Shown here one piece after another: positions 6,323-37,768 of a stretch of DNA of 64,000 nucleotides. Every line of letters begins with the position of its first letter. Within the stretch, counting starts at the first letter, position 1. The stretch covers positions 96,001 through 160,000 of the forward strand of contig CBDCWP010000038.1 in assembly GCA_965223505.1 (NCBI GenBank). Reading direction: 5' to 3'. Both the position numbers and the translations under genes were made by a program. The DNA comes from Planctomycetota bacterium. GTDB lineage: Bacteria; Planctomycetota; PLA2; JAEUHO01. The notes beneath the pieces were generated by a model that was given only the letters and a program-made list of their open reading frames with translations, was not told the DNA's origin and made no database searches.

Positions 6323-6338
6323 TCGCTCCGAGCGCCGC

Positions 6339-14834: not shown

Positions 14835-15584
14835 ATGGGGACCGCGGAGACCATCGACGAGGTCATCGAGCAGCTGACGGCGATCATCGATCGGTGCGTC
14901 GAGGACGAGCTGCGGCTCGGCTACTTTGCGGCGCTCTACCGGAAGGTCACCGTCGAGGTCAAGACGGGGATCGCGGAGGGCTTCTTCGACGACGGCGCCC
15001 GCATGGAGCGGCTCGACGTCATCTTCGCGAACCGCTACCTGACCGCCTACGACGCGCACCGTGCCGGTAGGCCGACGACAGAGGCATGGGCGTACGCGTT
15101 CGAGATCGCCGATCAGTGGTGGCCGATCGTGCTGCAACACCTGCTGCTCGGCATGAACGCGCACATCAACCTCGACCTGGGCGTCGCTGCGGCGAAGACG
15201 GTGCCCGCAGACGAGCTGCCCAACCTGCACGGCGACTTCAACAGGATCAACGACATCCTGAGCCGCCTGGTCGCCGAGGTGAAGGAAGAGCTCGCCGAGA
15301 TCTGGTGGACGCTACGGCTCTTCAACCGGTACCTGGGGAGCGTCGAAGACGCGATCATCAACTTCAGCATGACCAACGCGCGGGACGCGGCATGGGACGT
15401 GGCACTGCGGCTCGCGCCGATGGACGACGAAGAGCGGGGCGTGGCGATCGCCGCTCTGGACGCCGACGTAAGGCGCTTCGGGCGCGTCATTCGCCATCCG
15501 GGCGTCCTCGCGAGCACCGTCCTGAAGACGGTCCGGCTCGGCGAGCGAGGCTCGGTGCGGAGGAAGATCGAGATCCTCTCCTGA
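14835..15584 (+). CDS. DUF5995 family protein
   Basis: GYFAALYRKVT, FDDGARMERLDVIFANRY and LLGMNAHINLDL motifs. Confidence 0.8.
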   Translation: MGTAETIDEVIEQLTAIIDRCVEDELRLGYFAALYRKVTVEVKTGIAEGFFDDGARMERLDVIFANRYLTAYDAHRAGRPTTEAWAYAFEIADQWWPIVLQHLLLGMNAHINLDLGVAAAKTVPADELPNLHGDFNRINDILSRLVAEVKEELAEIWWTLRLFNRYLGSVEDAIINFSMTNARDAAWDVALRLAPMDDEERGVAIAALDADVRRFGRVIRHPGVLASTVLKTVRLGERGSVRRKIEILS

Positions 15585-15588
15585 CGAA

Positions 15589-17427
15589 CTATGCCGGCGC
15601 CGGCGTGGGGTCGGACTCGTTCTTCCGCTCTTCGACCTGCGCCTTGTCGAGGTCCTTGCCGCTCTCGAGCCTGAGCAGGCGGTCGAGCGAGAACGGGCCG
15701 GAACCGCGCCAGACGATCATGCAGAGGGTGAAGAACACGAAGAACGTGAACTGGAACCCGAGGTTGGTCGTCAACAGGCCGCCCTCGGCGCCCGCGCCGA
15801 ACACGTGCACGCCGACCGCACCGAGCATCACGAGGGCGTTCAACCCCGCGGCGATGCGGGTCACGAAGCCCAGCGCGAGCGCAAGCCCGCCGACGACGTG
15901 CGCGAACACGACGCCCCACGACATGAACGTCGTCCACGTCTCCATCTCCTCGCCCTGCGGCAAGCTGGACTCGAGCGTGTTCATGTCGGTGATGAAGGCC
16001 ATGCCCTTGATGAAGAGGGCGATGCCCAGATAGACGCGCAGCAGGTCGATGGGTCGAACGTGCTTGAGACCCGGGATGAGCGGCTTGCGTGTCGGCTTGG
16101 CGGCCATCGCCTCGCGGCGGCGCGCCATGGCTTTCGCGTGCTCTTCCTTCGCCACCGCTTCCTGCTCCGGCGTGAACCGGACGAGCCACGCGAAGAAGGA
16201 GAAGCCGAGCACCAGGAAGCCCAGAATCATCAGGAACGTCGGCCGGTGCGGCTCCCACTTGAGCAGGAACCCGGCCGCGACCGCGCCCATGTTCCCTCCG
16301 GCGCCGACGATCCCCGCGACGGCGCCCAACGCCTTCTTGTTGATGAACGGCACGACCGAGTACGTCGCGCCCTCAGACATCTGCACGAACAAGCTGAACA
16401 GGATCATCGTCGGGATCGCGAGGGCCAGCACCTCCATCCGGGAGAAGAGCAGCAGGGCGATGCCCTCGATGAACAGCGCGATGAACAGCCAGCGCACGCG
16501 GCCCTTGAGTCCGCCCTTCTGCACGAACTTGTCACTGATGTACCCGCCGAGCGTGCGCGCGAAGATGTTCATCAAGCCGAAGAGGCCGGCCACGAGACCG
16601 GCCGTGGCGATGCCGAGCCCGAAGTAGTCGGCGTAGTACAGCGCCGCGATGTTGTTGATCGTGAGCTCGATGCCGAAACAGGCCGCATAGATGAAGAACA
16701 GCGCCCAGACGCGCTTGTCCTTGACGGCCAGCATGAAGGACCCCTTGGTCTTCTTCCGGGGTTCGAGCTCGCCGCTGGCGCGCAGCTCTTTGAAGTTGCC
16801 GTTCGGCAGGTCGGTCGTGAAGAAGAAGTAGCAGAGGCCCACGATGAAGCAGACGGCGCCGGCGACGACCATCGAGAGGCGCCAGCTCCAAAAGTCGCCG
16901 AAACCCATCGCGAGGAAACCGGCGAGCAGCAGCGGCATGACCATCTGCGTGACGCCGCCACCGAGGTTACCCCAGCCGGCGGAGGTCGCATTGGCCGTTC
17001 CGACGACGTTCGGCGCGAACATCACCGACGTGTGATACTGCGTGATGACGAACGACGCTCCGATGACGCCGATGCCGAGCCGGAAGATCATCAACGCCTC
17101 GTAGCTCTGCGCGAAGCCGATGCTCATGACGGGAATGGACCCGAAAATCAGCAGCCCCGTGTAGCAGAGGCGCGGCCCGATCTTGTCGCAGAGCCACCCG
17201 ATGAAGAGCCGGGCGATGATCGTGATGGCGACCGAGGCAATGATGAGGTTGGCCACCTGCTGGTCATCGAGCTTCAACTCGTCGCGCACGACCTTCATGA
17301 GCGGCGCGATGCCGAACCAGGCGAAGAAGCACAGGAAGAACGCGAACCAGCTCATGTGGAAGGCGCGCATCGGCCGCGTCTTCAAGCTGAGCAGATTGAT
17401 CCTGGTGGCCTTGTTCTGGACTTCCAT
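15589..17427 (-). CDS. narK: NarK/NRT2-type MFS nitrate transporter fused to a C-terminal DoxX domain
   Basis: RAFHMSWFAFFLCFFAWF, nitrate signature AGWGNLGGG and ARTLGGYISD; C-terminal DLLRVYLG...LGFVTR...GSGPFSLD (DoxX). Confidence 0.9.
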   Translation of the reverse strand: MEVQNKATRINLLSLKTRPMRAFHMSWFAFFLCFFAWFGIAPLMKVVRDELKLDDQQVANLIIASVAITIIARLFIGWLCDKIGPRLCYTGLLIFGSIPVMSIGFAQSYEALMIFRLGIGVIGASFVITQYHTSVMFAPNVVGTANATSAGWGNLGGGVTQMVMPLLLAGFLAMGFGDFWSWRLSMVVAGAVCFIVGLCYFFFTTDLPNGNFKELRASGELEPRKKTKGSFMLAVKDKRVWALFFIYAACFGIELTINNIAALYYADYFGLGIATAGLVAGLFGLMNIFARTLGGYISDKFVQKGGLKGRVRWLFIALFIEGIALLLFSRMEVLALAIPTMILFSLFVQMSEGATYSVVPFINKKALGAVAGIVGAGGNMGAVAAGFLLKWEPHRPTFLMILGFLVLGFSFFAWLVRFTPEQEAVAKEEHAKAMARRREAMAAKPTRKPLIPGLKHVRPIDLLRVYLGIALFIKGMAFITDMNTLESSLPQGEEMETWTTFMSWGVVFAHVVGGLALALGFVTRIAAGLNALVMLGAVGVHVFGAGAEGGLLTTNLGFQFTFFVFFTLCMIVWRGSGPFSLDRLLRLESGKDLDKAQVEERKNESDPTPAPA

Positions 17428-17486
17428 GACGCCTCTCCGGGTTACGCCCTACGAGGCTCCGCTATGCGCCCGGCCCGCTACGGCGG

Positions 17487-18716
17487 CTAGGCGTGATAGT
17501 GAAGACTCTCGCCGAGATACGGATCGCCCTCCGGAACAGGCTTGGCGTTCCCCAGTCCGCGCAGGAAGAACCAAGTGAACCCGGCGAGCAGCGCGGCGAG
17601 CGGGGCGATCCCCCACAGCACCGACACGAAGTGGTCACCGACCAGCGGCGGCGCGACCATCAGATGCAGGTCGAGCCAGCGACCGGCCAGCAGCAGTACC
17701 GCGACACGCAGCATCGTCGTGCGATTGCGCTTGGCGGGTCGCGGGAGCAGCAACAGGAACGGGATGAGCCAGTTGACGCCGACGTTGATTACCATCCACG
17801 GGCCCCACGTCGCGTTCATGCGCGGGACGTAGTAGGTCGTCTCCTCGGGGATGTTGCTGTACCAGATGAGCATGTACTGGCAGAACCAGATGTACGCCCA
17901 GAAGGTGGCGAACCCGAGCATGAGCTTGCCGAGGTCGTGAAGATGGTCGTCGCGCAGAATGCCGCGCAGCGGTCCGGCGCGCTCCAGCAGGATCGCGATC
18001 ACCGCGATCGCGGCCAGCGACGACAAGAACAGGCTCGAGAAGTTGTAGACCGCGTATACGGTGCTGTACCAGTGCGGCTCCAGCGACATGACCCAGTCGA
18101 ACGCAGCGAACGAGTACGTCAGCGCGAACACGACCAGGAACCCGCAGGACAGCTTCACGGCGCGGCCGTGCAGCGCGTGTTCGCCCGGCTTGTCGTCCTG
18201 CCGGCGCGAGACGCCGCGCAGCATCCAGGCGAACGCGATCCAGATCCCGAGGAACAGGACGGAGCGCACTAGCACGCCCGCAACCGACAGCCATCCGCTC
18301 TTGTGTTGCAGCAACGGATCGCTCTCGACCGCCTCGGTGTGGGTCCACTCGTAGGCGCCGAGCGTGATGAGCAGGATGACGAACACGCAGGCCGCCGTGT
18401 AGGGCAGGGTCGTGGCCAACGCCTCCGGTACACGCCGGATCGCGACGCTCCAGCCGGCGCGGGTGACGAACCCGAACACCAGGAACAGGAGCCCGCCGAG
18501 CGACAGGCCGAGGGCGTACTGGCCCGCGACGATGAGCCCGGCCCAGCCCGCCTCCGTGTCGATGAAACAGCCCCCGAGGGTCACGACCACGGCGACGGCA
18601 GCGACGACGATCAATCGCTGGGTCAGCGCGCCGTCGATCAGTCGCGGTCCCGCGGAAGCGGGCTCGACTACTGCTTCGGCTTCTGCAGCGTGCGAATGTA
18701 GCGAATCACCTTCCAT
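17487..18716 (-). CDS. actF: Alternative complex III subunit F (start uncertain: ATG 18716 or TTG 18614)
   Basis: AGWSVAIRRVPE, DWVMSLEPHWYST, HDLGK, FWAYIWFCQYMLIWYSNIPEE; about 10 TM helices. Confidence 0.88.
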   Translation of the reverse strand: MEGDSLHSHAAEAEAVVEPASAGPRLIDGALTQRLIVVAAVAVVVTLGGCFIDTEAGWAGLIVAGQYALGLSLGGLLFLVFGFVTRAGWSVAIRRVPEALATTLPYTAACVFVILLITLGAYEWTHTEAVESDPLLQHKSGWLSVAGVLVRSVLFLGIWIAFAWMLRGVSRRQDDKPGEHALHGRAVKLSCGFLVVFALTYSFAAFDWVMSLEPHWYSTVYAVYNFSSLFLSSLAAIAVIAILLERAGPLRGILRDDHLHDLGKLMLGFATFWAYIWFCQYMLIWYSNIPEETTYYVPRMNATWGPWMVINVGVNWLIPFLLLLPRPAKRNRTTMLRVAVLLLAGRWLDLHLMVAPPLVGDHFVSVLWGIAPLAALLAGFTWFFLRGLGNAKPVPEGDPYLGESLHYHA

Positions 18717-19312
18717 CGGTCGTCTCTCGTTACCTGGTTTGCGTGCGAGGCCATGTCGCCCTTGCCGACCGTGATGACGCGGTACATCTGTCCGTCGCTC
18801 ATCTTGATCAGCGCGGGATCGGTCAACACCGGCGGCGGGCGCATGCCGCGCCGGCTGACGGGTGTGTTGGCGGCGCCGAACTGTCCGTGGCACGTCGCGC
18901 AGACGTTCATCCAGACCTGCCTGCCGCGCGTAAGGTGCGCGGCCTGCGCCGCCTCGGTCAGCTCGTCGAAGTTCCACGACGGCTTGTAGGCGTTCCAGCG
19001 CGCCTGCTCTTCCGGCGGAAGCTTGACCCACTCGCCGGCGGGCCGGCTCTCGTCGATGTTCAGAAGGCCGTCCCCCTGGTGCATCGGCAGGAACCCGCGC
19101 GCCACCGTGCCCTCGACCGGCCGGCGCAGCGTGCGCCCGTCGTCGAAGAGCGGATTGACGTCCTGCGACTCGAAGCCGGGGTTCTCGCCCATGTTGTGCA
19201 TGAACTCGAGATTGCGCTTGCCGTAGTCCGGCTCGGCGAACAGATGCAGGCCGATGCCGACCGCGATCAGGAGCACCAACAGCCCCTCGAACGGATGGAG
19301 GCCCTTGATCAT
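18668..19312 (-). CDS. actE: Alternative complex III subunit E, monoheme cytochrome c
   Basis: One CATCH; RRPVEGTVARG; GDMASHA...DRWKVIRYIRTLQ; position between actD and actF. Confidence 0.88.
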   Translation of the reverse strand: MIKGLHPFEGLLVLLIAVGIGLHLFAEPDYGKRNLEFMHNMGENPGFESQDVNPLFDDGRTLRRPVEGTVARGFLPMHQGDGLLNIDESRPAGEWVKLPPEEQARWNAYKPSWNFDELTEAAQAAHLTRGRQVWMNVCATCHGQFGAANTPVSRRGMRPPPVLTDPALIKMSDGQMYRVITVGKGDMASHANQVTRDDRWKVIRYIRTLQKPKQ

Positions 19313-19832
19313 GCGTCCTCCTCCACGTAGTCGGTCACCGACTCGGCCCCGTGGTGCGTGAGCAGCTCGCGCGCGTCGTCGACGGTGCGCTGCGCGCCCT
19401 CGAGGCGCAGCAGCAGCACGAAGCGGTCGTCCGTGACGGCGATCTCGGGCTGCTTGCCGCGCTTGCCGGGCCACAGCCCGCAACGCATGAACAACGCAAG
19501 GACCACACCGAGGCCGGCGAACAGCACCGTGATCTCGAACGCGATCGGAATGAACGCCGGAAGCGAGTTGAACGGCTTGCCGCCGACGTTGAGCGGCCAG
19601 TCCACCGACGACGTCCAGAACTGGAAGTAGAGGATCAGCGCCGCGCCGAGCAGGCCGGCGAGAAAGCACACCCAGGTCAAGCGGGACGAGCGGATGCCCA
19701 TCGCCTTCTCGATCCCGTGAATCGCGTAGGGCGAGTAGACGTCGACGATCGAGTACGACCCGTCGCGCGCCGCGCGCGTGGCATCGAGCACGCTCGCCTC
19801 GGACGCGAAGACGCCGTGGACCATGCGAGCGC

Positions 19833-19836
<4 letters not shown>
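19309..19836 (-). CDS. actD: Alternative complex III subunit D (DUF3341)
   Basis: [10 protein letters not shown] and [25 protein letters not shown]; two TM helices. Confidence 0.9.
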
Positions 19837-21186
<1,350 letters not shown>

Positions 21187-21194
<8 letters not shown>

Positions 21195-24177
21195 GCTTCT
21201 CTCCTTCGCCCGTGTCGGGCTTGTCCGCGACACGCGTCAAGTACGCGACCGAGGGTTTCACACCGATCTCTCCCAGGGCCTGCGCGGCGCGAGGTGACTT
21301 CATCTGCGCGGTCACGGAGCTCTTCGGGTCGTTGGTGTTTCCGAAGACGATCGCGTCGGCCGGACAGGCCTGCATGCACGCGGTCTGGATGTCGCCGTCG
21401 CGCAGGCCGCGTCCCTCCCGCTTGGCCGTCGCCTTGGCCTCCTGGATGCGCTGGATGCAGAAGGTGCACTTCTCCATCACGCCGCGCGACCGGACGGTCA
21501 CGTCCGGGTTCAACACCATGTTCTGCAGCCGGTCCTCGCGCGGATAGTCGAACCAGTTGAAGCGGCGGACCTTGTACGGACAGTTGTTCGAGCAATACCG
21601 CGTCCCGACGCAGCGGTTGTAGACCTGTTGGTTGAGGCCTTCCGAGCCGTGCACCGTCGCCAGCACCGGACACACGGTCTCGCAGGGCGCGTGATCACAC
21701 TGCTGGCACATCATCGGCTGGTGAATCGTCTCGAGCTCGTCGCCCTCGCCCTGGAAGTAGCGGTCGATGCGGAGCCAGTGCATCTCGCGCTGACGGCGCA
21801 CCTCGTCCTTCCCCACGACCGGGATGTTGTTCTCGGCCTGGCACGCGATGACGCACGAGGCGCAGCCGGTGCAGGCCGACAGATCGATCGCCAGCCCCCA
21901 GTGGTTGCCCTTGTACGGGTGGTCCTCTTCCCACAGCTCGTCGAACGCATGCGGGTGCGGTACACCCGATGACGGATCTTCCCGATAGGCCGACAGCGTC
22001 GTGTGCGACGCGACGTTGCGGCGCTGCTTGCCGTCGGGCGCGAGATGCGCCGGAACGTCGAGCGAGTGATAGAGCTGCGTGCGGGCGAGCCGCGCCGTCA
22101 GCCCCGTCTTCTTGATCGCGACGACGGCGGCGCCAGCCAAGGGCGCCGCGTTCACGCCCACGATTCCGTTCGGCTCGACCGTCGGCGTCGCTTCGATCCA
22201 GTCGGGCCCGACGTCGTGGAACCGTCCCGTGCCCTGGCGTCCGTATCCCAACGCGACGGCGACCGTGTCGTCGGCCTGTCCGACCTGAACGAGCGCGGGC
22301 AGCGAGACCGCGACGGCGCCGTCCGCCTCGAGCTTGACGATGTCGCCGTCTTCGACCCCGAGCCGCTTCGCCGTCGCCGGCGAAAGGCAAGCGTAGTTGT
22401 CCCAGGAGACCTTCGAGACGGGGTCCGGAAGCTCCTGCAGCCAGGGATTGTGCGCGTGCCGCCCGTCGGTCATCGCGACTTTGGGATAGAGCACGAGATC
22501 GAGACGCTTCTGCTCGTCGGGCTTCCATGCCGCCGGCGATTCGAGCGCGCCCGCGTCGAACGATCGCGACGAGGCTTCCACCTGGTACCGGCAGAATCCG
22601 TCGTGCAGCGACTGGTTCCAGAACACGTCGAACGACGTCGGTTCCAATACGTTCGGGAAGATCGCCGTCTTCCAGACCGCGCGCATGATCGCGCGATCGT
22701 CGCGATCGTCGCCGCTCCACTTCGCCAGACTCTCGACGACCGCACGCGTCTGACCCAACGGCGCGATCGTCGGCTGACTGACGGTGATCGTTCCCTTGAC
22801 CGGCTCCGCGTCGCCCCAGGCCTCCAGCGGATGGTGGTCGGGGCAGACGTAGTGGGCGACCGACGCGGTCTCATCGACGCGCTCGGCGAAGCTCACGACG
22901 AGGTCGACCTGCGCGATGCCCTCGCGCAGCGTCTCGGCATCCGGAAGGTCGAAGAGCGGGTTACAACCCGCGATGAAGAGTGCGCCGACCTCGCCGGCCG
23001 CCAGCTCGTCGCGCAGCGCCGCGAGCGCGCGGTCGTCGCCGGTCCGCTGTAGGGACGGACGATCGAGATCGATGACGCGCTGCTTGTTCGACGCGTCGTC
23101 CGCGCCCAACAGGTGGTTGAGATACGCGGCGATGCGCTGTGTGTTCGCGTCGTCGACGTCGCAGACGACGACCGCGCTGCCTGCGGGTGCGGTCGCGAGG
23201 CGCTCGGCGACCTCGTCGAGCAGTGCGGGGTCGGTCTTCGGCGCCGGGCCCTGCGCCCACGGCGCCTTCGTGCCCTTGCGGCCCGCGACGCGTTCGGCGA
23301 GCGCCGAGACTACCAGCGGCAGATCGCGCGGCGCCGTGACGACGCGCCGGTCGGCGTTCGTCCCCGTCAACGACACGCGCGACTCGAACTGCACGTGGTG
23401 GCAGAAGGCGGTCGCACCGGCATCGAGGTTCCGCGCGGCCTGCCATCCGCGGGTGTGGTCCACCGGTGCGACCCAAGTTCCCAGGAAGTCCGCGTCGACG
23501 GACACGATCACGCGCGCGTTCTCGAGCCGGAAGCGCGGCAGCATGCGCTCGCCGTAGAGCGCCTCGTACGCGTCGAGCATCGCCGAGCTGGAGAGCGCGT
23601 CGTAGCTGACGTGCTTGCTGTCGTCGAACCCGCCGAGGAAACGCTCGATCGTCGCGCGCGCGGTCACGCCGTTCACCGTGCCGCTGAGGAACCGAACGCG
23701 CTTGCCGGCGCGCTTGATCTCGCCGAGCTTCTGCTTGATGGCGCCGTCGACGGCGTCCCACGTTCCCGGATTGCCCTTCACCAGGGGTTGCTTCAGCCGT
23801 TGGCCGTCATAGAGCGACAGAATGGAGGCCTGGCCGACGGCGCACGTGCTGCCCTTCCCGCCGGCGAACGGATGCAGGCTGTTGCCCTCGATCTTGATCG
23901 GCCGGCCGTCCCGGACCTTCGCGACGACGCCGCAGGCGGCGGGACACGCGCCGCACTGGGTCGCGTAGTACGCGGACGTTCCCGGCGTCACCTCTTCCGG
24001 CTTGTCGTGGAAGGGCACGATGTCGTGCTCTTCGCCGCGCGAGCAGCCCGGCAGCACGGCGACGCCGAACGAGAATCCGGCGAGCTTCAAGAACGCGCGA
24101 CGGGACGGCGAGAGACCCGCGAGCAGCGGGATGCCCTCCTCGTCGAGCCGGATGGCTTGTGTGTCGTGTTCCGACAT
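21187..24177 (-). CDS. actB: Alternative complex III subunit B (TAT lipoprotein; molybdopterin-oxidoreductase-like + Fe-S domains)
   Basis: SRRAFLK TAT motif and LPGC lipobox; [20 protein letters not shown]-terminal Fe-S motifs [42 protein letters not shown]. Confidence 0.93.
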
Positions 24178-24186
24178 GTCGGCGTC

Positions 24187-24840
24187 CTAGTAGTGGCACG
24201 CGGCGCAATCGAGCGACGCGTTCACCTGTTTCCCTGCGACGCCGTTCTCGTTGACGTCGCGATGGCAGTTCACACACCAGCCCATGCGCAGCGTTTCGTG
24301 CTGGTGCATGCGCTCCATGTTCCGCACCTCCCCGTGGCACGTCTCGCAGCTGACATCGGCGTTCACGTGCACGCTGTGGTTGAAGTAGACGAAGTCGGGA
24401 AGCCGATGGACCTGCTTCCACTTGATGGCGCTGGCCGGCGTCGATTCGTCCGGATTGAGGTTCTCGTCCAGGCCCTGCGCCTCGTAGAGCCTCCGCAGCT
24501 GCTCGGAGACCAGATGACGCACCGGGCGTCCCTGCGCCTTTGCGTCCTCTTCTTCGGCGCGCATCGCGCCGAACGACGTCCGCACGATCTTGTGGCAGTT
24601 CATGCAGATGTCGGTCGACGGCACGGCGGCGTGACGTCCCCGCTCCGCCGAGAAGTGGCAGTAGAGGCAGGGAATCTCGAGCTCACCTGCGTGCAGGCGG
24701 TGCGAGTAGTCGATCGGCTGCTGCGGGCTGTAGCCCTGGTTGTTGCCCGGAAACCGGGTCTCGGCGAGACGCGGCCACAGTGTCAAGTAGACGACCGCGA
24801 CGGCGACGACCAGGAACGTGATGCGCGTGTGTCTCGGCAT
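24187..24840 (-). CDS. actA: Alternative complex III subunit A, pentaheme cytochrome c
   Basis: N-terminal TM; QPIDYSHRLHAG; five CxxCH (CLYCH, CMNCH, CETCH, CVNCH, CAACH); LPDFVYFNHSVH. Confidence 0.93.
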   Translation of the reverse strand: MPRHTRITFLVVAVAVVYLTLWPRLAETRFPGNNQGYSPQQPIDYSHRLHAGELEIPCLYCHFSAERGRHAAVPSTDICMNCHKIVRTSFGAMRAEEEDAKAQGRPVRHLVSEQLRRLYEAQGLDENLNPDESTPASAIKWKQVHRLPDFVYFNHSVHVNADVSCETCHGEVRNMERMHQHETLRMGWCVNCHRDVNENGVAGKQVNASLDCAACHY

Positions 24841-24853
24841 GTTGGTTTCCCCG

Positions 24854-26509
24854 TTAGCAGGGAATCTCTGCGTTCTTCCTCGCGTAGAACCACCAGTTGA
24901 CGACCAGGCACGAGAGGTAGTAGACGGCGAAGCCGTACAAGGCGTACTCAGGCGTGCCGGCCTTGATCTGCGTCGCGAAGATCTTCGGAATCAAGAAGGC
25001 GCCGTACGCCGCGACGGCCGACGTCCAACCCAGGACGGGGCCGGCTTGATCCTTCGGGAAGATGATCGGGATCATCCGGAACGTGGATCCGTTCCCGACA
25101 CCCGTCGTCGCGAAGAGCAAGATGAACAGAAGCAGGAACGGAACGAAGTACTCCTCCGGGGTGTGAGAAGCGTTCGCCTGCGAGACGAAATACCCGGCGC
25201 CGATGGTGGCGCCGATCATGATGACCGTGTCCCACTGCGTGACCTTCGCGCCGCCCCACTTGTCGGAGAGCCAACCGCCCAAGGGGCGAATCAGCGCGCC
25301 GACGCCCGCGCCGATCCAGATGTACAGAGCGGTCTTCGGCGCGGCCGGGTTGCCGACCGCCTCGGCGAGCACGCTGCCGTCCTCACCCACTCGAATGAAG
25401 CCGAAGACGTCGTCGATCAGCTTGGGGAAGGCGTTGGCGTAGCCGATGAACGACCCGAAGGTCATCGTGTAGAGCCACGTCATGACCCAGTTGTGCTTGT
25501 TGCGGAAGATCGCGAACTGCCCGCGCAGGTTCTCCTGTGTCGCCTTCTGCGTCAGATAGCGCATCGAGAGCAACGTGACGCAGACGCAGACGACGAGGAT
25601 CATGAAGATCTTGAGCAGGACCGGGAAACCGCCCCACGGCGTGATCAGCAGCACGACTCCGACGGTGGCGCCGACGTAGCCGAGCGTCGTCAGCCACAGG
25701 TACTTGCCGATCGCGGCGGACGTCGAGCCGTACTTGTGCTGCGGCAGGTTGTTCATGCCGAAGAAGGCCAGCACGCCGAAGAACGCCAGGATCGGCACCC
25801 AGACGAGTCCCGCGTTCTGAATCCACAGCTCATGATGAACGACTTCGGTCGTTCCCTCGGGCGTGGTCGTCCAGGTGTACGGGGCGCCGCCCAGGCCGCC
25901 GAACGCCCCGAACGTGATGATCCACGGCAGCAGGAACTGCATCACGCTCACGCCGAGATTGCCGAGGCCGGCGTTCAGCCCGAGCGAGAGCCCCTGCATG
26001 CGCTTCGGGAAGAAGAAGCTGATGTTCGACATGGAGGACGCGAACGCGCCGCCGCCGACGCCGGAGAGCGCGGCGAGCACGACGAGCGTCAGGAACGAGA
26101 CGTTCGGATCCTGCAGCGCGACGCCCGCGCCGACCGCCGGGATCAACAGCAACGCGGTCGTCATGAACTTGACGTTGCGCCCGCCGCAGATCGCGATCAT
26201 GAACGAGTTGGGGATTCGCAACGTCGCCCCGGCCAGGCCGGCGACGGCGGGCAGCGTGAACATGAGCGCGCGGTAGCCGTCGCCGTCGTACGACTGCCCG
26301 TCGTTCATGAACGTGAAGTCGAACAGGCTCTTGTCGGCGAAGTGCACCTTCTGGATGAACTTCGCGACCATTCCCCAGTACAGCCAGACCGCGAACCCGC
26401 AAAGCAGGTTGGGAATCGAGATCCACAGGTTCCGGTTGGCGATCTTCTTGCCTTCGCCTTCCCAGAACTGCTCGTCCTCGACGTCCCAGCGCTCGAGCTG
26501 TCTACTCAT
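24854..26509 (-). CDS. narK: NarK2-type nitrate/nitrite MFS transporter
   Basis: WDVEDEQFW...ANRNLWISIPNL, AGLGNLG, FGSFIGY and GNGSTFRMI motifs. Confidence 0.92.
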   Translation of the reverse strand: MSRQLERWDVEDEQFWEGEGKKIANRNLWISIPNLLCGFAVWLYWGMVAKFIQKVHFADKSLFDFTFMNDGQSYDGDGYRALMFTLPAVAGLAGATLRIPNSFMIAICGGRNVKFMTTALLLIPAVGAGVALQDPNVSFLTLVVLAALSGVGGGAFASSMSNISFFFPKRMQGLSLGLNAGLGNLGVSVMQFLLPWIITFGAFGGLGGAPYTWTTTPEGTTEVVHHELWIQNAGLVWVPILAFFGVLAFFGMNNLPQHKYGSTSAAIGKYLWLTTLGYVGATVGVVLLITPWGGFPVLLKIFMILVVCVCVTLLSMRYLTQKATQENLRGQFAIFRNKHNWVMTWLYTMTFGSFIGYANAFPKLIDDVFGFIRVGEDGSVLAEAVGNPAAPKTALYIWIGAGVGALIRPLGGWLSDKWGGAKVTQWDTVIMIGATIGAGYFVSQANASHTPEEYFVPFLLLFILLFATTGVGNGSTFRMIPIIFPKDQAGPVLGWTSAVAAYGAFLIPKIFATQIKAGTPEYALYGFAVYYLSCLVVNWWFYARKNAEIPC

Positions 26510-27245
26510 CGGCGCCCTCGCTGTTCGGGGCCGTCGGCAGCACGCGCTGCGTTCGACGCTCGTAGTTCCAGCGCACGACCTGCGTCTTGCGCCAGAGGTA
26601 CATGTTCGGGATGACCAGCACGTGCACGAGCCGCGTGAACGGGAAGAAGGCGATGAGCACGAAGTTGCCGACGATGTGCCACTTCACGAGCGCCGGCATC
26701 GGCGTCACGTAGGAGATGTCGGGGTTGAGCTTGACCAGCGACCAGAGATAGGGCGACAGGGTCGACGCGAACCAGGACGATCCCCAGTTGTAGGTGACGG
26801 CGATCGCGATGCCCGTTCCGATCTGCCCGAGAAGCATGAGGTACAGGATCCAGTCGGCGGGGCTGGTCACGATGCGCGCGCGCGACGAGCGCATGCGCCG
26901 AATGATGATGTTCACCATGCCGATGACGGTCAGGACGGCCGCGATCAGCGCTGTCACCTCGAGGATGATCAAGCGCAGCGGGTCGCCGTTCCACCAGAGG
27001 ATGGAACGCGGAATCAGGAACGCGACGACGTGTCCGAGCAGCACGAACAGCAGGCCGTAGTGAAACGGGACGAGCGCCCAGAAGTGGCGGTCGTTCTCCA
27101 GGAACTGGGACGAGAGGCTCGAGTACGTGAACGCCCGTTGGCGGTACCGCTGGATCGTCACCACGAAGAACAGGATCATCGCGACGTACGGGAACACCGC
27201 GTAGAGCAGGGTGTCGAGGTAACCGAATTCAGAGCTTCCGGGCAT
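26502..27245 (-). CDS. narI: Respiratory nitrate reductase gamma subunit (diheme b)
   Basis: SSLSSQFLE, FHYG...GH, WH...FPFTRLVH; all four heme-ligating His present. Confidence 0.94.
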   Translation of the reverse strand: MPGSSEFGYLDTLLYAVFPYVAMILFFVVTIQRYRQRAFTYSSLSSQFLENDRHFWALVPFHYGLLFVLLGHVVAFLIPRSILWWNGDPLRLIILEVTALIAAVLTVIGMVNIIIRRMRSSRARIVTSPADWILYLMLLGQIGTGIAIAVTYNWGSSWFASTLSPYLWSLVKLNPDISYVTPMPALVKWHIVGNFVLIAFFPFTRLVHVLVIPNMYLWRKTQVVRWNYERRTQRVLPTAPNSEGADE

Positions 27246-27875
27246 GGTCCACCTCCACGCCGTCCGTGTACGCCTTGGGCGGGTACTGGGGCGGCAGCGC
27301 GCACGAGGAGCCGCACTCGTAGGGCTCCGCCTGCGTCGCGGGAACGTCGACGGCTTCGACCTGCGTCTCGCCGTATTCCGCTTCGAGCGCCGTAAGCAGG
27401 TCGCGCAGCACCTGCCGGTACGGACTGTCCTTGTCATCGAAACCGGCGTTCATCTTGAAGAGCGCCGGCTGGACGTAGGTCGTGCTGAAGAGGCCCGCCT
27501 TGCCTTCCGGCAGGCGTCCGAGGACGCGCAGGCCGGCGGTGAGGTGGTCGGGCAGTTCCGTGCCTTCCTCGACACCGAGCGCTCGCAGGAGCTGGCGCAT
27601 CTCGACCAACATCGCGCCGCGCGCGTAGTCCTCGCCGTACAGGTGCCAGCCCATCTCGAGCGAGCAGACCGGATTGATGTCGAACGTACGCGTGTAGTGC
27701 TCTTCGGCATCTTCCGGCGTGCTGTCGTTCAGGAACACGCTCAGCGCCAACGCGCCCTCGCCGGGGAACTCGTCGTCGCGAGCGATCAGGTCGCATGCTC
27801 GGATCAAGCCGCACGTGCGATCGGCGTCCGGATAGCGCAGGATCTCCGCCACCGCGTCGAGAACGTCGCGCTTCA

Positions 27876-27876
<1 letters not shown>
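27229..27876 (-). CDS. narJ: Nitrate reductase maturation chaperone (delta subunit)
   Basis: LRYPD, YTRTFD, GEDYARG and ELPDHL motifs; lies between narH and narI. Confidence 0.9.
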
Positions 27877-29366
<1,490 letters not shown>

Positions 29367-29386
29367 GTGCCCTATTCCTCTCTCTC

Positions 29387-32300
29387 TCACCACATGAGCC
29401 GGGGCAGCTTGCGCACGTAGACGTGCGTGTCGCGGTTGCACCCGGTGGGGCCCCAGTAGTTGAAGTGGAATGTGAACTGCCCGTAGCCGCCGACCATCAA
29501 GTTCGGCTTCAGACGCGTACGCGTCAGACTGTTGTGCCCACCGGCGCGCCGGTTCTTGCGCAGCGGGGAGCGCGGAACGCCGTAGGTGCGTTCCGGCGAG
29601 TGGTAGATGATGCAGATGCCGCGCGGAATGCGCGCGGAGACCGCGGAACGCGTGACGACGACGCCGTGGTCGTTGTGGACCTCGACCCAGTCGTTGTCGT
29701 CGATGCCGAGGTGCTCGGCGTCCTTGTCGTTCATCCAGAACGGCTCGCAGCCGCGGGACAGCGTCGTCATGCGCTCGTTGTCGCCGTACGTGGAGTGGAT
29801 GTGCCACTTGCCGTGCGGCGTGAGGTAGTTGAGCATCAGCGTAGGGCCGACCTCCTCACTCACGCGCAGGTCCGCGTACTCCGTCGGGAGCGGCTTCGGC
29901 TTGTACGTCGGTAGGTGCTCGCCGAACTGGATGTAGCCCGGATGATCCAGATACAGATGCTGGCGTCCGGTCAAGGTGCGGAACGGAACCAGCGTGTCCT
30001 TCTGGAAGGTGAACGGCGCGTAGGGCCGGCCGTCGTTGATGAGCCCCGACCACATCGGGCTGTTGATGAAGCGCTGGGGGCGCGCCTGGATGGTCTCGAA
30101 GTCGCACCGCACCGCACGCGTGTCCTCGGCCAGGTGCGTGAGCGGAATCCCCGTCTTCTTCTCGAGGTTCTTGTACGAGCGGAAGGCCAGCTCGCCGTTG
30201 GTCACCGTCGCGAGGTTGAGTACGGCGTTGCAGGCCTGCTTCGCGTCCTTGATGGACGGATAGGTGCTGCCGCCCCAGTGCTCGACCGGCCAGGTCGCGA
30301 CCATCTCGTCGTAGAAGTCCTCGCACATGTAGTGCGTGCCGTGGGCCCCGAGGCCACCGGAGCGCACGTTCGGACCGAGCGAGATGTACTGGTTGTAGAG
30401 GTTCTTGTAGTCGCGCGTGACGACCTTGAGGCCGGGCATGGTCTTGCCGGGAATCGCATCGACCTCGCCGTCGATCCACTCCTTCATGTCGGTCTGCGCG
30501 ATCTCGGCCGGCGTGTCATGCGCGAGCGGCGCCGCGACGATGTCCTTCACGGGCTCGGGGAAGTGGCGCTCGGCGAGCTCAGAGAACCGCTTCGCGATCG
30601 CCTTGAAGATGTCCCAGTCGCTCTTCGACTCCCAGCACGGCGGCACCGCGGGCGCCAGCGGGTGAATGAACGAGTGCATGTCCGTCGAGTTGAGATCGGC
30701 CTTCTCGTACCAGGTGGCCGCCGGCAGGACGATGTCGGAGTAGAGCGCCGACGTGTCCATGCGGAAGTTCAGGTCGACGACGAGGTCCATCTTCCCCTGC
30801 GGCGCGATCTTGTGCCACGCGACCTCCTTGATGGAGTCCTCGGCGATCGGCGTCGCGATGTCGTTGTGGTGCGTTCCGAGGTAGTGCTTGAGGAAGTACT
30901 CGTGTCCTTTGCTGGACGACATGAGCGCGTTGCCGCGCCAGATGTACCAGACGCGGGGCCAGTTCTCGGGCGCGTCCGGATCCTCGACGGAGAACTTCAT
31001 GTCGCGGTTCTTGAGCTGCTCGATGACGTGCTTGACGACGCCCTTCTCGTCTTTCGCGCCCGCCTCTTCGGCCTCCTTGACGAGGTCGATGGGGTTCTTC
31101 TCGAACTGCGGGTAGAAGGGCAGCCAGCCGTTGCGCACGGCGCGCACCTGCGCGTCGATCGTGTGGCCCTTCGCGAGACTGTTCTCGGGCTGCACCTGCG
31201 GCACGGTGTGGTAGTCGGTGAACTCCTTCTCGTAGCGCCACTGGTCGGTGTTCACGTAGTGCCATGACGGTGCGTTCTGAAGCCGCACGGCCGGATACCA
31301 GTCCTTGCCGAACGCGATCGAGCCCCACGACTCGCCGGGCGCGAGCTTCTCCTGGCCGACGTAGTGGGCCAAGCCGCCGCCGTTCGTCCCGACGCATCCG
31401 CAGAAGAGCAGCGCGTGGATGCCCGCGCGGTACATGAGATTGGCGTGGTACCAGTGGTTGATGCCCGCGCCGATGATGATGGTGCACTTGCCGCCGGTGT
31501 GCTCGGCGGTGCTCCCCCACTCGCGCGCGAACTGGATGAGGTCCTTGCGGCCGATGCCGGTGTACTTCTCGGACCACGCCGGGGAGTACGGCGCGTTCTC
31601 GTCGTCGTAGCTGGTGGGGTAGTCGCCCTCGAGCCCGCGCGGTACGCCGTACTGAGCCATCATGAGGTCGTAGACGGTCGCGACCTTCACGGTCGACCCG
31701 TCTGCCAGCGTGATGTGCTTGACGGGCACGCCGCGCAGGAGCGGACGCGCGTCGGCGAAGTCGTCCAGCTCCACCGACATCTGCTCGTCTTCCTGGCCGA
31801 GCAGCGTCAGCGCCGGGTCGATGTCCTCGCCGCTCTCCGGGTCCTTGAAGAGCAGGTTCCAGCTGCCGTTCTCCTCGCCCCAGCGGTGTCCGGACGAACC
31901 GCCGGGCATGCGCGCGTCCCTGGACAGCTCGTCCCAGATGAGGAACTTCCAGTCGCCGTTCTCGCTCTTCCCGTAGCGCTCCGTACGGCCGGCGCGCAGC
32001 ATCTGGTCCGGACGCCAGACGCCGTCCTTCTCCTTGAGCTCGACCAGGAACGGCGAGTCCGTGTAGCGCTTGCTGTAGTCGACGAAGTACGGAACCTGGC
32101 GGTCGTGGTGGAACTCCTTGAGGAGCACGTGGTTCACGGCCATCCACCATGCGCCGTCCTGGCCCGCGTTCACGTTGACCCACGTGTCGGCGTACTTGGC
32201 GACCTGGTTGAAGTCCGGCGAGAAGACGTACATCTTCGTGCCGTTGTGCCGAGCCTCGGCCGCAAAGTGGCAGTCGGGCGTGCGCGTCATGTTGAGGTTC

Positions 32301-33034
32301 GACCCCATGACGGCCAACAGCTTCGCGTTGTACCAGTCCGCGCTCTCGTTGACGTCGGTCTGCTCGCCCCAGGTCTCGGGCGACGCGTTGGGCAGGTCGC
32401 AGTACCAGTCGTAGAACGACAGGGAGACGCCGCCCATCAGCTGGAGCATGCGCGCGCCGGACGCGTAGCTGAGCATCGACATGGCGGGAATCGGCGAGAA
32501 GCCTGCGATGCGGTCCGGACCGTGCGCCTTGATCGTATGCACGTTTGATGCCGCCATGATCTCGAGCACCGTGTCCCATGACGTCCGGCGAAAGCCCCCT
32601 TTGCCCCGCGCAAGCTGCCAACGGCGACGACGGTCCGGATCCGCAACCATCCAAGCCCAGGCGTCCACCGGATCGCGGTGCATCGCCTTGGCTGTTTTCC
32701 ATGTGTCGAGCAGCGCGCCGCGGATGTACGGATACTTCACGCGCAGCGGGCTGTAGAGGTACCAGGAGAACGAGATGCCGCGCTGGCAGCCGCGCGGTTC
32801 GTACGGCGGGATGTCCGCGTTGAGCTTGGGGTAGTCGAGCCCCTGCATCTCCCACGTGACGATGCCGTCCTTGACGTGGATCATCCACGTGCAGCCGCCG
32901 GTGCAGTTGACGCCGTGCGTGGAGCGCACCACCTTGTCGTGCTGCCAGCGGTTGCGATAGAACTCTTCCCAGCCGCGTCGCTTGGCGCCGACGACGTCCT
33001 GGATCCACGGGAGGTTCTTGCCGTTGGTGCTCAT
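29387..33034 (-). CDS. narG: Respiratory nitrate reductase alpha subunit (cytoplasm-facing Nar/Nxr type; no TAT signal)
   Basis: [38 protein letters not shown] (Mo-ligand Asp region), [19 protein letters not shown] and [11 protein letters not shown]. Confidence 0.97.
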
Positions 33035-33924
33035 ACCGTCGTTCCTTCCTTGGGCGCAGCGGCCGCCGAGGCGCGTCCCTCCCAAGAAGCGCGCTTGATC
33101 AGCGGCTTGCGGACTCCGCGGAAGCGGAATGCCCAGATGCGGTTGAAGGCGCCCAGCACGATGGCGGCGCCGAGCAGGCCCATCAGCGCGAAGATGAGCG
33201 GAGCGTTGCTCGACTCCTCTTGCTCGTGCTTCGCGGTGTGTTCGAAGTACGCGACCAGCCCGAGGATCTCGTCCTCGGTCATGGGGTGCTCGCGGAAGGT
33301 CGGCTGCATCGTCGGCGTCGCGGGCGCGCTGAGCCAGGTGCCGAGCTTGCGGCGGTCTTCATAGCGTTCGAAGACCTTGGTGAGGTCCTTGTCCGAGAGG
33401 CGACCGCCGCCGAACGCCTTCAGCCCGCCGATGTCGTGGCAGGCGATGCAGGCGGCGCCGCCGTTGGCGAGCTGCTGCTCACCCGTGAAGAGCTCGCGGC
33501 CGAGCAGTACGTCCGCATTCGTGAAGGGCCGCATGCTGATCTGGACGCCCGCGAACTGCGACTTCTCGAGCTCGCTCTCGACGGCCACGAGGTCGAGCAG
33601 CTGCTCGGCGCGCTTGCGCGACATGCCGGCGATCGGGTTCATGCGGGCGCCGCGCGCCTCGTCGAGGAGCTTCAGCGCGTAGGGGTCGCCGCTGTCGAGG
33701 ACGCCGGTGGGATCGACGATGAACTTGATGAGCCAGTCGCGGTCCTTGCGCTTCTCGACGTGCTTGAGATCGGGTCCGGTGAGGCGTCCGCCACCGATCG
33801 TGTGACAGCTCGAACAGTTCTGTTTGAAGTCCGTCACAGGGTCTTCGGCGAAGGCCTTCGGACACCACAGGATCGCGATGATTGCCGCGAGGCAGATCAG
33901 CGATGCGCGTCTTGCGATGTTCAC
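33031..33924 (-). CDS. narC: Exported diheme cytochrome c with C-terminal membrane anchor (NarC-like)
   Basis: Signal peptide (AFA); [17 protein letters not shown] and CIACH; C-terminal TM; stop overlaps the narG ATG. Confidence 0.85.
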
Positions 33925-33961
33925 GGGCAGCCCTCCGTGCACTTGGAGCCGCCGTGCACAT

Positions 33962-33977
33962 AGGAAACGGCGTGCCA
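33962..33977 (-). promoter_or_regulatory. Candidate sigma54 (-24/-12) promoter of the nar-act operon
   Basis: Minus strand TGGCACG-CCGT-TTCCT vs consensus TGGCACG-N4-TTGCW; one mismatch, at the conserved -13 G; 37 bp upstream of the narC start. Confidence 0.5.
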
Positions 33978-34074
33978 CCTCGCGCCCGACGCACCGAAAT
34001 CAGGCCCTCTTAAGTCGTTTCATGGACGCCACTTGCGACAGTGCTTCCACGCCCTACGGGCGCGCCACCGCGCG

Positions 34075-34196
34075 GCGCATACACCGGTATGCGCGTCGAC
34101 GGAGCCGGACGGCGCCGAGGCCGAACTGCGGGCCCCGCCGGGGGTGCATACACGTCGATGCACCGCACCGAGGGGATCGCGTACCGCGCTATGCGG
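34075..34196. promoter_or_regulatory. Three related 20-bp palindromes, candidate activator binding sites
   Basis: 34075 GCGCATAC-accg-GTATGCGC (perfect); 34144 GTGCATAC-acgt-CGATGCAC; 34177 TCGCGTAC-cgcg-CTATGCGG. Confidence 0.55.
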
Positions 34197-34260
34197 CGCG
34201 CGGCGCCTTCACGGCCTCCTTGCTGGCCGGTCCGCCCCGGATTCGGCAATCCCCATCCGG

Positions 34261-35085
34261 ATGTTCCGCTACGCGCGCCTCCTGCCCTGCCTCCCCTTCG
34301 CGCTGCTCCTCGGTGCATGCACGACGTCCAGCCTCTCCACCGGAAGTGCTCGGGCCGCCGACGCCGCGATGGCGAGCCGCTCGGAGGACTCGTACGAACG
34401 CCCCGAGGACGTCGTTCGCGGCCTTCGCCTTCTCGAGCAGGCGCTCGAGGCACGCCGCGACCGGCGCGCCGCGTTCGTGGGCACGTACTGGATGACGACC
34501 CGCGCGATCCAACGCCGCATCGGCACGGGCTACTACGAGGACGACGACTACGTGTCGAACGCGGTGGTGCGCATCGCGAGCTACCACCGGGTCGCGCACG
34601 AGGCGTACGAAGACGGGCGTCGAAGCGACGTCCCGGTCGTCTGGCGGCGCGCGAACGATGCCGGCACGCGAAAGGCCGCCGGCCACGAGGTCGTGTTGCT
34701 CGGGATCGTGGCGCACGTCCGCGACTTGGCATACGTCGTCGCCGACCTCGACGACCGCGCCGCACGCGACCGGCAACGCCGGGACTTCCAGTGCATCGAG
34801 ACGATCCTGTGCGAGACGATCGACCCCGTGCAGCGCTATCTGGGTCGGCGCCACGACCGCGCCTTCGCGCTGATGGACGCCTTGGCCATCGACTACGACG
34901 AGAGCGTCTTCTGCCGCTGGCTGATCGCCATGCGCAACGAAGCCTGGCGATTCGGAGTTGCGCTGGCCGATGCCTCCGACGCGGAGGAACGCCGGCGGAT
35001 CCGCGCGCGCATCGAGACACGGTTCCTTCAGCGTTCGCGGTTCATCGGCCGAACGCCGCTACGGGCACTGGCGCGGGATCGATGA
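34261..35085 (+). CDS. DUF5995-like lipoprotein
   Basis: Lipobox LLGAC; AAFVGTYWMTT, YYEDDDYV and LLGIVAHVRDL resemble motifs of 14835..15584. Confidence 0.65.
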   Translation: MFRYARLLPCLPFALLLGACTTSSLSTGSARAADAAMASRSEDSYERPEDVVRGLRLLEQALEARRDRRAAFVGTYWMTTRAIQRRIGTGYYEDDDYVSNAVVRIASYHRVAHEAYEDGRRSDVPVVWRRANDAGTRKAAGHEVVLLGIVAHVRDLAYVVADLDDRAARDRQRRDFQCIETILCETIDPVQRYLGRRHDRAFALMDALAIDYDESVFCRWLIAMRNEAWRFGVALADASDAEERRRIRARIETRFLQRSRFIGRTPLRALARDR

Positions 35086-37665: not shown

Positions 37666-37768
37666 GGGCACCATCCTATTCCGCGACCACATACCCATCG
37701 GTGCCGGCGTCCCGGTTGATTCAACATTCCGCGAAATCGACGCCGGTCCTGCTTGTATGGTCCGGCGC

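Follow-up and report, generated by a model that had tools for sequence, protein, structure and literature searches.

The window analysed here, a stretch of 64,000 nucleotides from a Planctomycetota bacterium (GenBank assembly GCA_965223505.1, contig CBDCWP010000038.1, positions 96,001 to 160,000), carries on its minus strand a block of 13 genes (15589..33924) in the order narC-narGHJI-narK-actABCDEF-narK::DoxX, that is, a nitrate reductase (Nar) operon that encompasses a complete alternative complex III (ACIII). An earlier note on this DNA, made from the sequence alone, described 13 co-oriented, tightly packed genes, with the act genes bracketed by two nitrate transporters and followed by no oxidase, SCO or actG gene, and the open reading frame (ORF) map bears out this description. 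The gene junctions, computed from the refined start coordinates, range from -49 to +59 bases: -4 (narC/narG), +20 (narG/narH), -1 (narH/narJ), -17 (narJ/narI) and -8 (narI/narK) on the nar side, and +13 (narK/actA), +9 (actA/actB), -8 (actB/actC), -4 (actC/actD), -4 (actD/actE), -49 (actE/actF) and +59 (actF/narK::DoxX) on the act side. Both bracketing transporters match the NarK model TIGR00886, below its cut-off. The ORFs and family profiles of the window reveal no oxidase, SCO or actG directly beyond narK::DoxX; a convergent DUF5995 gene and then GNAT genes are located there. The arrangement is real and conserved, and it joins two systems of known kinds in an unstudied way. The genes, listed from the start of the operon, are the following (CxxCH, haem c-binding motif; Fe-S, iron-sulfur; PDB, Protein Data Bank).

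33031..33924, minus strand: narC, cytochrome with a signal peptide, two His/Met c-type haem domains (2 CxxCH) and a C-terminal membrane anchor
29387..33034, minus strand: narG, cytoplasmic catalytic subunit with molybdenum bis-pyranopterin guanine dinucleotide (Mo-bisPGD), Thermus-like; TIGR01580 above the cut-off (NCBIfam score 1492.6 vs 1084)
27876..29366, minus strand: narH, Fe-S subunit; TIGR01660 655.9 vs a cut-off of 524
27229..27876, minus strand: narJ, chaperone; PF02613 above the cut-off, TIGR00684 58.3, just under 59.35
26502..27245, minus strand: narI, di-haem b subunit; TIGR00351 114.5 vs a cut-off of 105.6
24854..26509, minus strand: NarK-family nitrate/nitrite transporter; TIGR00886 265.8 (cut-off 311.7) and the NarU model 255.3, both under the cut-off
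24187..24840, minus strand: actA, cytochrome c with 5 CxxCH and an N-terminal membrane helix; best PDB match 6BTM_A, E 1.5e-43
21187..24177, minus strand: actB, Tat (twin-arginine translocation) motif SRRAFLK, B1 domain and B2 Fe-S domain; best PDB match 6F0K_B, E 1e-182; PF04879 above the cut-off
19833..21194, minus strand: actC, NrfD-type quinol-site subunit; best PDB match 6BTM_C, E 1.6e-193
19309..19836, minus strand: actD; PF11821, 181 bits
18668..19312, minus strand: actE, one-haem cytochrome c; best PDB match 6F0K_E, E 1e-19
17487..18716, minus strand: actF; best PDB match 6F0K_F, E 2e-64
15589..17427, minus strand: narK::DoxX; TIGR00886 304.2 vs 311.7, PF07681 above the cut-off, DoxX at residues 462-538

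The integrity of the narK/actA junction, where the two gene sets meet, was examined with public sequencing data. A contig of 2868 bases from a public run is identical, with 0 differences, to window positions 22377-25244 and bridges the junction, and a second contig from the same public sample likewise crosses it; this sample may be the source sample itself, so that the match is a check of the assembly only. Together with the same gene order in relatives, the bridging contig rules out an assembly chimera at narK/actA. The GC content of the operon (64-70%) matches the remainder of the window. A promoter scan of positions 15000-34600 found 0 sigma-70 sites vs 1.8 expected; in the same interval, there are 17 terminator-like matches vs 9.0 expected, none of those on the coding strand being placed between nar and act, and the 600 bases upstream of narC contain no FNR, CRP or Rex consensus. 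DUF5995 genes lie on either side of the operon (14835-15584 and 34033-35085, both on the plus strand), and extracytoplasmic function (ECF) sigma factors with long C-terminal extensions are encoded upstream of it (35092-38151 and 39410-40624, minus strand).

In NarC, the haems are apparently ligated by C37-H41/M95 and C159-H163/M206, and the motifs and both methionines are invariant among 62 homologues; the protein shares 29% identity over 216 aligned positions with the cytochrome encoded ahead of narG on a Thermus plasmid. NarG, which is 62-63% identical to Thermus NarG vs 48-49% to the next plasmid records, lacks the RR (Tat) motif and has a short N-terminus, as in Thermus; its motif in the TRTPD region is also that of Thermus and does not discriminate between nitrate reduction and nitrite oxidation. 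NarI retains four haem histidines (H62, H72, H190, H208), and the four haem b ligands known from Escherichia coli (H56, H66, H187, H205; PMC11327836) are present in all 97 aligned NarI sequences of the nar-act type. The structural model of NarI (predicted local distance difference test, pLDDT, 84.9) has E. coli NarI as its top fold match and, at E<=0.001, as its only one, with no DsrM entry. In five canonical NarI, G69, A90 and G94 are present in all and G95 in four; among the 97 nar-act NarI, in the E. coli numbering, A90 is replaced by L in 88, G95 by L in 83 and, in all 97, M91 by E, M156 by W and K86 by R, with G65/H66 mostly retained. We take the altered positions to line the inhibitor/quinol pocket. 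Thermus NarI carries identical pocket residues, and helix 3 (89-119) is predicted to be unbroken in the model; judging by these substitutions, the pocket looks remodelled, short of demonstrably closed.

On the act side, ActA has five haem motifs in 57 of 57 nar-linked loci in which the ORF was found (see below for the loci) and ActE one in 54 of 54; ActE of the operon has a hydrophobic N-terminus without a lipobox cysteine. ActC residues H131, D162 and D242 align with His139, Asp169 and Asp253 (numbering from the alignment) of Rhodothermus marinus ActC, for which the quinol-site and half-channel residues are named in PMC5928083. These three residues are invariant, along with R111, E114, H236, E383 and R384, in 58 of 58 nar-linked ActC, and the three are invariant also in 21 of 21 oxidase-linked ones. 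ActB contains an FS0-type motif (C75/C78/C82/C112) that aligns with the cysteine motif of PsrA and ArrA and is missing from all four solved ActBs (6F0K, 6BTM, 6LOD and 8K9E). The full set of four cysteines occurs in 53 of 57 nar-linked ActB (of the rest, two have three, one has none and one is incomplete) and, in loci picked by their NarI, in 15 of 17, vs 1 of 19 oxidase-linked ActB. The nar-linked ActB would thus bind a fifth Fe-S cluster at this motif, given which the cofactor-free state described for the B1 domain of R. marinus ActB (PMC5928083) probably does not hold for the nar-linked proteins.

Conservation of the linkage and fusion of NarI with ActA

The earlier note proposed a search for act genes within nar operons elsewhere, and such operons are indeed common. 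In 80 genome loci picked by ActC, narI with narJ/H/G is located upstream in 46 and narI alone in 2, in seven more the upstream DNA lacks narI, and 25 extend less than 2.6 kb upstream (with unrelated genes there in three, L029, L033 and L086); hence 46 of the 55 ActC loci that have upstream DNA follow nar. The record titles assign the nar-linked loci to Planctomycetota, Acidobacteriota, Bacteroidota, Ignavibacteriota, KSB1, Marinimicrobia, Calditrichota, Myxococcota and Bdellovibrionota; the closest titled relatives of ActC, 79-82% identical, are in Planctomycetota metagenome-assembled genomes (MAGs). Because this set was chosen by likeness of ActC, we re-examined the linkage from the side of NarI. 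NarI of the nar-act type is encoded in 27 of 301 genomes, drawn evenly across the phylum, and these yielded 21 new loci, of which one was omitted and one of the remaining 20 near-duplicates an earlier locus. Downstream actA is present in 18 of the 20, the other two ending inside narK at a contig end, and narC lies upstream in 18, with two cut off. These figures are counts rather than a statistical test since kin are not independent. Of 50 genomes, 46 have a narC homologue, which in 34 of them shares a contig with the act genes and lies upstream of these.

Two apparent variants of the cluster were rejected upon inspection. The 'narC' upstream of actA in L033, L050 and L092 is actually the N-terminal haem domain of a six-haem ActA, and the supposed new catalytic partner in L198 and L199 is a degenerate NarG-like gene. 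In these two loci (L198:4769-10079 and L199), ordered narC-narG-narH-narI-act, NarG (25%) and NarH (38%) are highly degenerate while narC, narI and act are intact, possibly a step towards the loss of NarGH. The gene for NarK::DoxX is matched over its length (~1.8 kb, 58-70%) in related operons; its DoxX part corresponds to window positions 15589-16045. In the nar-less locus L082, a free DoxX-like gene (5641-6081) is immediately ahead of actA, and DoxX is possibly an accessory membrane subunit of the nar-type ACIII group.

In an unrooted tree of 73 ActC (35 of the 58 nar-linked, 21 oxidase-linked and 17 others), a single branch (SH-aLRT, the Shimodaira-Hasegawa-like approximate likelihood ratio test, 97) separates the 35 nar-linked from the 21 oxidase-linked sequences. 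The near-duplicates L103, L110, L121, L185, L194, L211 and L252 were excluded from trees or counts, as was L198 with its long branch. Several Bacteroidota ACIII (L092:5486-6775, L086 and 6BTM) fall on the nar side of the tree, have a NarC-like domain on ActA and lack the FS0 cysteines; judging by these sequence features, Bacteroidota ACIII may derive from the nar-linked type. In L050 (569-14262), an ACIII of the nar-side group follows ferredoxin-type genes, which we assume to resemble napG/napH, and comprises a six-haem ActA and a 786-residue ActE with seven haem motifs.

A second ActC is encoded in 36 of 57 genomes; among 20 second-ActC regions, 14 are beside an oxidase, one is the nar copy itself, and five have neither in view. 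In one genome (G098, loci L079 and L210), both the nar-type ACIII and the narC homologue are present twice; this genome is the sole nirK carrier of the 57. The host of the window, in which the earlier note proposed to look for a second, oxidase-linked ACIII, follows the same pattern: its genome (92% complete) encodes, on contig C10, a second ACIII with an SCO-like gene and a cytochrome c oxidase behind it, subunit II of this oxidase having a haem motif. The nar-linked ActC is 57% identical to this second ActC. The host also encodes two cytochrome b (bc-type)/Rieske loci, six haem-copper family genes, two of which resemble NO reductases in size and gene neighbourhood (NCBIfam gave those two no family), and a NapA-like gene labelled from its motif alone; narG, narI and narC are each single-copy. 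With a second ACIII and other respiratory loci in the genome, the nar-linked ACIII is an extra copy and not the general complex III of the cell. One Rieske/cytochrome b locus, on contig C30 (~135300-145000), also includes a 1298-residue eight-haem cytochrome and then a cbb3-type oxidase cluster; the other, on contig C24, likewise has an eight-haem cytochrome.

A gene fusion suggests that parts of Nar and ACIII touch. Locus L058 carries narC, then a single ORF for NarI::ActA (5719-7020, plus strand), then actB-F, with no narGHJ at the locus. Among the 120 matches listed, 96 protein clusters (P0121-P0216) have both domains, and fused genes are present in 4 of 80 metagenome loci (L121-L124), with narC directly upstream in each; two of the four are near-identical to L058. 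In the fusions, the proximal haem ligand H56 is kept in 0 of 93 and H205 in 9 of 96, and the distal ligands are kept (H66 in 93 of 93 and H187 in 95 of 96), as are R86/E91 in 94 of 94. ActC of the fusion locus is placed among the nar-linked ActC in the tree. The join is topologically compatible, with the C-terminal end of NarI in the cytoplasm and a membrane helix of ActA following; the fold model (predicted template modelling score 0.49) is uninformative on the packing of NarI against ActA. Since the fusion loci lack narGHJ yet have narC, NarI and NarC remain with ACIII even where the cluster is without NarGH.

Two further comparisons bear on contact. Domain 1 of NarC matches residues 56-137 of Flavobacterium johnsoniae ActA, which form an additional haem domain of that protein (E 8e-14, rank 2 of 13); this domain type is not unique to ACIII because the top match is an unrelated cytochrome domain fused to SCO. 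The F. johnsoniae domain seems to stand in for the cytochrome c domain found in subunit II of the caa3 oxidase (PMC5928083). When the complex of NarI, NarC and ActA was predicted and the placement of ActA scored, as the earlier note had suggested, the score was 0.37 vs 0.00 for the best of three controls; the runs share at least 90% of contacts, the pLDDT of the partners is at least 78, and swapping NarI out brings the score from 0.37 to 0.00. The mark used for such predictions is reached by 116 of 157 solved pairs and 2 of 215 mismatched pairs; among the passes at 0.60 or below are only 18 of the 157 solved pairs but both mismatched ones.

Proposed electron route and competing explanations

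The linkage seen from two sides, the separate oxidase-linked ACIII, the nar-linked ActC group and the fusions lend good support to the dedicated ACIII-NarC-NarGHI module proposed in the earlier note, and it is highly probable that the operon products form one functional unit. From these genes, motifs, linkage and fusions, we infer contact between the unfused proteins, a direction of electron flow and, potentially, proton pumping. NarGHI, NarC and ActABCDEF would make up one membrane-spanning quinol:nitrate oxidoreductase supercomplex for nitrate respiration, with the second ACIII of the host serving the caa3 oxidase. Quinol would be oxidised at the site of ActC on the periplasmic side, where the residues are observed and the activity is presumed from solved ACIIIs, and the electrons would pass, as in those complexes, to the Fe-S cluster of ActB, the five haems of ActA and ActE. 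NarC, which would take the place of the cytochrome c domain between ACIII and oxidase, would then reduce the distal haem of NarI. As expected of their families, NarI would conduct the electrons across the membrane to NarH and NarG, with nitrate reduced to nitrite in the cytoplasm, and the two NarK proteins would carry nitrate and nitrite. We favour this series wiring because the operon holds, in nitrate form, the pieces of the complex DsrMKJOP of sulfate reducers (ActC would correspond to DsrP, ActB2 to DsrO, ActA/ActE/NarC to DsrJ, NarI to DsrM and NarGH to DsrK); by this analogy, a route quinol -> Act -> NarC -> NarI -> nitrate is on balance probable, though far from assured.

Textbook NarGHI draws electrons straight from quinol, so that a large part of the redox span between quinol and nitrate goes untapped. 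At potentials of roughly -74 mV for menaquinol and +420 mV for nitrate, this span has room for one more proton per electron. The extra energy conservation that the earlier note attached to the route quinol -> ACIII -> NarC -> Nar is conditional: this remains the best reading of the operon, its direction being deduced, but charge separation would be that of plain NarGHI unless ActC/ActF pump protons, and pumping would be the gain.

Several observations weigh against the series wiring. The distal haem of E. coli NarI lies near +20 mV. The potential of ActE is +165 mV (PMC5928083), and therefore electron transfer from ActE to such a haem, and then against the membrane potential, would be uphill unless the haem is retuned. 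NarI keeps G65/H66, a basic residue 86 and, in the model, a continuous helix 3, so that blockage of the DsrM-2 type is not seen in the alignment or the predicted structure; Thermus NarI shares the pocket residues and works without act genes in its operon. In the fusion family, the distal ligands and R86/E91 persist although the proximal ligand and narGHJ are gone, and a distal haem with no onward route for electrons suggests exchange with quinone, which fits a role of NarI in electron export as well. The predicted complex is weak evidence: a pass at such a score is wrong in the majority of cases, unless contact was likely from the outset. Finally, the nar side of the ActC tree includes the nar-less loci L082, L086, L090, L091, L092, L033 and L050, among them Bacteroidota and Bdellovibrionota; the nar-linked ActC clade, for which the earlier note proposed to test, is set apart from the oxidase-linked ActC by a well-supported branch but is not made up of nar-linked loci throughout.

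A bolder version of the series wiring is possible but doubtful, namely, a widespread supercomplex in which a distinct ACIII, with a fifth Fe-S cluster in ActB, is bolted to NarI via ActA/NarC, replaces the quinol site of Nar and pumps protons, nitrate respiration thereby yielding more energy than with textbook NarGHI, with a wire that is reversible for nitrite oxidation and with the Flavobacterium-type ACIII descended from it. In this descent, the aerobic complex may have arisen through fusion of a NarC-like domain to ActA and loss of FS0.

Among the alternatives, the one that fares best, although we regard it as rather unlikely, is an export hub as in Thermus: NarI would oxidise quinol for NarG, and NarC and the attached ACIII would lead electrons out to periplasmic acceptors, such as NO reductases, cbb3/caa3 oxidases or other cytochromes, when oxygen is absent or low, the complex being physical but ACIII working in parallel to Nar rather than in series. 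Denitrifying Thermus without NarC cannot grow on nitrite or NO (PMC7694296), and this explanation accommodates the retention of H66 and the basic residue 86 in NarI, the distal haem and NarC in fusions without NarGH, and the six haem-copper family genes of the host with their two NO-reductase-like members. However, periplasmic N-oxide reductases are scarce: with a nirS search validated on the Thermus plasmid, nirS was found in 0, nirK in 1 and nosZ in 9 of 57 genomes, many of which are incomplete MAGs. Altogether, 47 of the 57 genomes show none of these three genes, and in the 92% complete host genome neither these nor nrfA (PF02335) were found, which weakens the idea, also raised in the earlier note, that the module feeds periplasmic N-oxide reductases. 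Moreover, Thermus NarC takes the place of complex III, so that export would have no need of a complex III in the same operon, and two Rieske/cytochrome b loci and a further ACIII are present in the host genome anyway.

A second alternative, which we consider improbable, reverses the enzyme: as a nitrite oxidoreductase (NXR), NarG would oxidise nitrite in the cytoplasm, electrons would pass via NarI and NarC to an oxidase, and ACIII would run backwards to reduce quinone (reverse electron flow). Lineages not known to nitrify would then oxidise nitrite as mixotrophs. A very similar Nitrobacter cluster acts as NXR and delivers its electrons finally to complex III or IV (PMC7694296), the cytoplasmic NXR of Nitrolancea is encoded as nxrA-nxrB-narJ-nxrC and is close to Nar (PMC3504966), and the direction of enzymes of the present kind was left unassigned in PMC10732223; the remodelled NarI pocket and the several oxidases in the host genome fit as well. 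Yet the carriers span many heterotrophic lineages, nrfA is present in 24 of 57 genomes, as expected of nitrate respirers, and the closest named enzyme found is the true nitrate reductase of Thermus, in a comparison without Nitrobacter or Nitrolancea NXR sequences. A search for RuBisCO (PF00016) in the host genome (92% complete), which did not extend to other carbon-fixation pathways, found none.

The chance is slim that act and nar merely share an anoxic promoter while their products act apart via the quinone and cytochrome pools. The narK genes that often lie between narI and actA and the nar-less loci in the nar-side ActC group would agree with co-regulation alone, but this leaves unaccounted for the NarI::ActA fusions with their selective loss of the proximal haem ligand, the fixed order narC-narGHJI-(narK)-actA-F across many phyla and, weakly, the dependence of the predicted ActA placement on NarI.

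Least probable is that the act-like genes encode a separate catalytic enzyme, either an NrfAH-like nitrite reductase (PMC10732223) or an ActB1 with a molybdenum cofactor behind FS0: none of the genes nirS, nirK, nosZ and nrfA was found in 27 of 57 genomes, the FS0-type motif is widespread in nar-linked ActB, and S196 of ActB, a residue shared by 62 of 70 sequences, is aligned to a cysteine of ArrA, but an ACIII subunit is the best solved relative of ActA, ActB, ActC, ActE and ActF, the five CxxCH of ActA are ordinary, with no NrfA-type site and no PF02335 match in the host genome, B1 of R. marinus has no cofactor (PMC5928083), and a second chaperone gene is absent from the operon. S196 itself is no proof of a molybdenum site because F. 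johnsoniae ActB also has serine at this position. The ArrA cysteine is, we presume, a ligand of molybdenum.

Relation to known respiratory systems

The gene arrangement, for which the earlier note knew of no characterised example, is already in print. In PMC10732223, nar is reported upstream of a six-gene 'NrfD-like' cluster in 13 instances from Planctomycetota and KSB1 MAGs; the cluster matched no described complex, was not recognised as ACIII and was proposed to be a nitrite reductase or a respiratory protein. It is the same string as here: a five-haem cytochrome, an Fe-S/molybdopterin-fold protein, NrfD, ActD, a one-haem cytochrome and a second membrane subunit. The available text of that article does not name a whole ACIII, NarC, the FS0 motif or NarI::ActA fusions. 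Found here are the NarI::ActA fusions, the FS0 motif in nar-linked ActB, the match between NarC and the F. johnsoniae ActA domain, and the remodelling of the NarI pocket. The portions available of PMC3504966, PMC8076601, PMC6995999, PMC4013037, PMC11327836 and bioRxiv 10.1101/197269 do not describe a nar-linked ACIII, and in the full-text literature searched, which excludes subscription papers (for example, the act-cluster surveys of Refojo), the synteny appears only in PMC10732223 and a bench study of Nar with ACIII does not. A cluster that is common in MAGs and has been read as a nitrite reductase thus receives a different annotation, which, going by record titles, concerns nine lineages or more. 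The NarI::ActA fusion and the FS0 motif can serve as markers, and the fusion is a natural single-chain construct for structural work.

The solved ACIIIs (R. marinus, 6F0K; F. johnsoniae, 6BTM; the phototroph entries 6LOD and 8K9E) share with the operon the six core subunits in order, the 5+1 haems and the quinol-site and channel residues of ActC. In contrast to them, the ACIII of the operon is tied to NarCGHI and not to an oxidase, its ActB has the FS0 cysteines, and its ActE lacks the lipobox cysteine; the extra haem domain that is fused to ActA in F. johnsoniae has its match here in a separate NarC.

The nearest tested cases include the heterotetrameric NarCGHI of Thermus thermophilus (PMC7694296, PMC10609526). 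The narCGHJIKT operon resembles the present one in the membrane-anchored di-haem narC ahead of narG, in NarG (63%), in the NarI pocket and in the two NarK genes; an interaction of NarC with NarI is reported, and NarC is used in place of the repressed complex III (PMC7694296). Thermus differs in having no act genes in the region examined, whereas the operon here carries a whole ACIII. In Streptomyces coelicolor, Nar1 depends on, and co-purifies with, bcc-aa3 (PMC7931247); the partner in that case is a Rieske/cytochrome b complex and not ACIII, and the available text mentions neither a dedicated copy nor a NarC.

The closest functional parallel to the proposed series wiring is DsrMKJOP, for which quinol oxidation at the NrfD-type DsrP, followed by transfer via DsrO, DsrJ and the NarI-type DsrM to DsrK, has been proposed, with the NarI-type site blocked in DsrM and with nothing gained over oxidation at DsrM unless DsrP pumps (bioRxiv 10.64898/2026.08.25.746951). 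Both systems have an NrfD-type quinol site, a periplasmic wire of Fe-S clusters and c-type haems, a NarI-type cytochrome b and a cytoplasmic catalytic unit. They differ in that unit (NarGH, not DsrK) and in the cytochromes; ACIII adds ActD/ActF, proposed pumping parts, and the helix-breaking loop of DsrM is not predicted in NarI of the operon. If the series wiring is correct, the system offers a direct test of whether NrfD-type subunits pump protons and of why a chain would have two quinone-type membrane subunits; a Nar fed by ACIII would then be the nitrate counterpart of DsrMKJOP and of the ACIII-oxidase supercomplexes.

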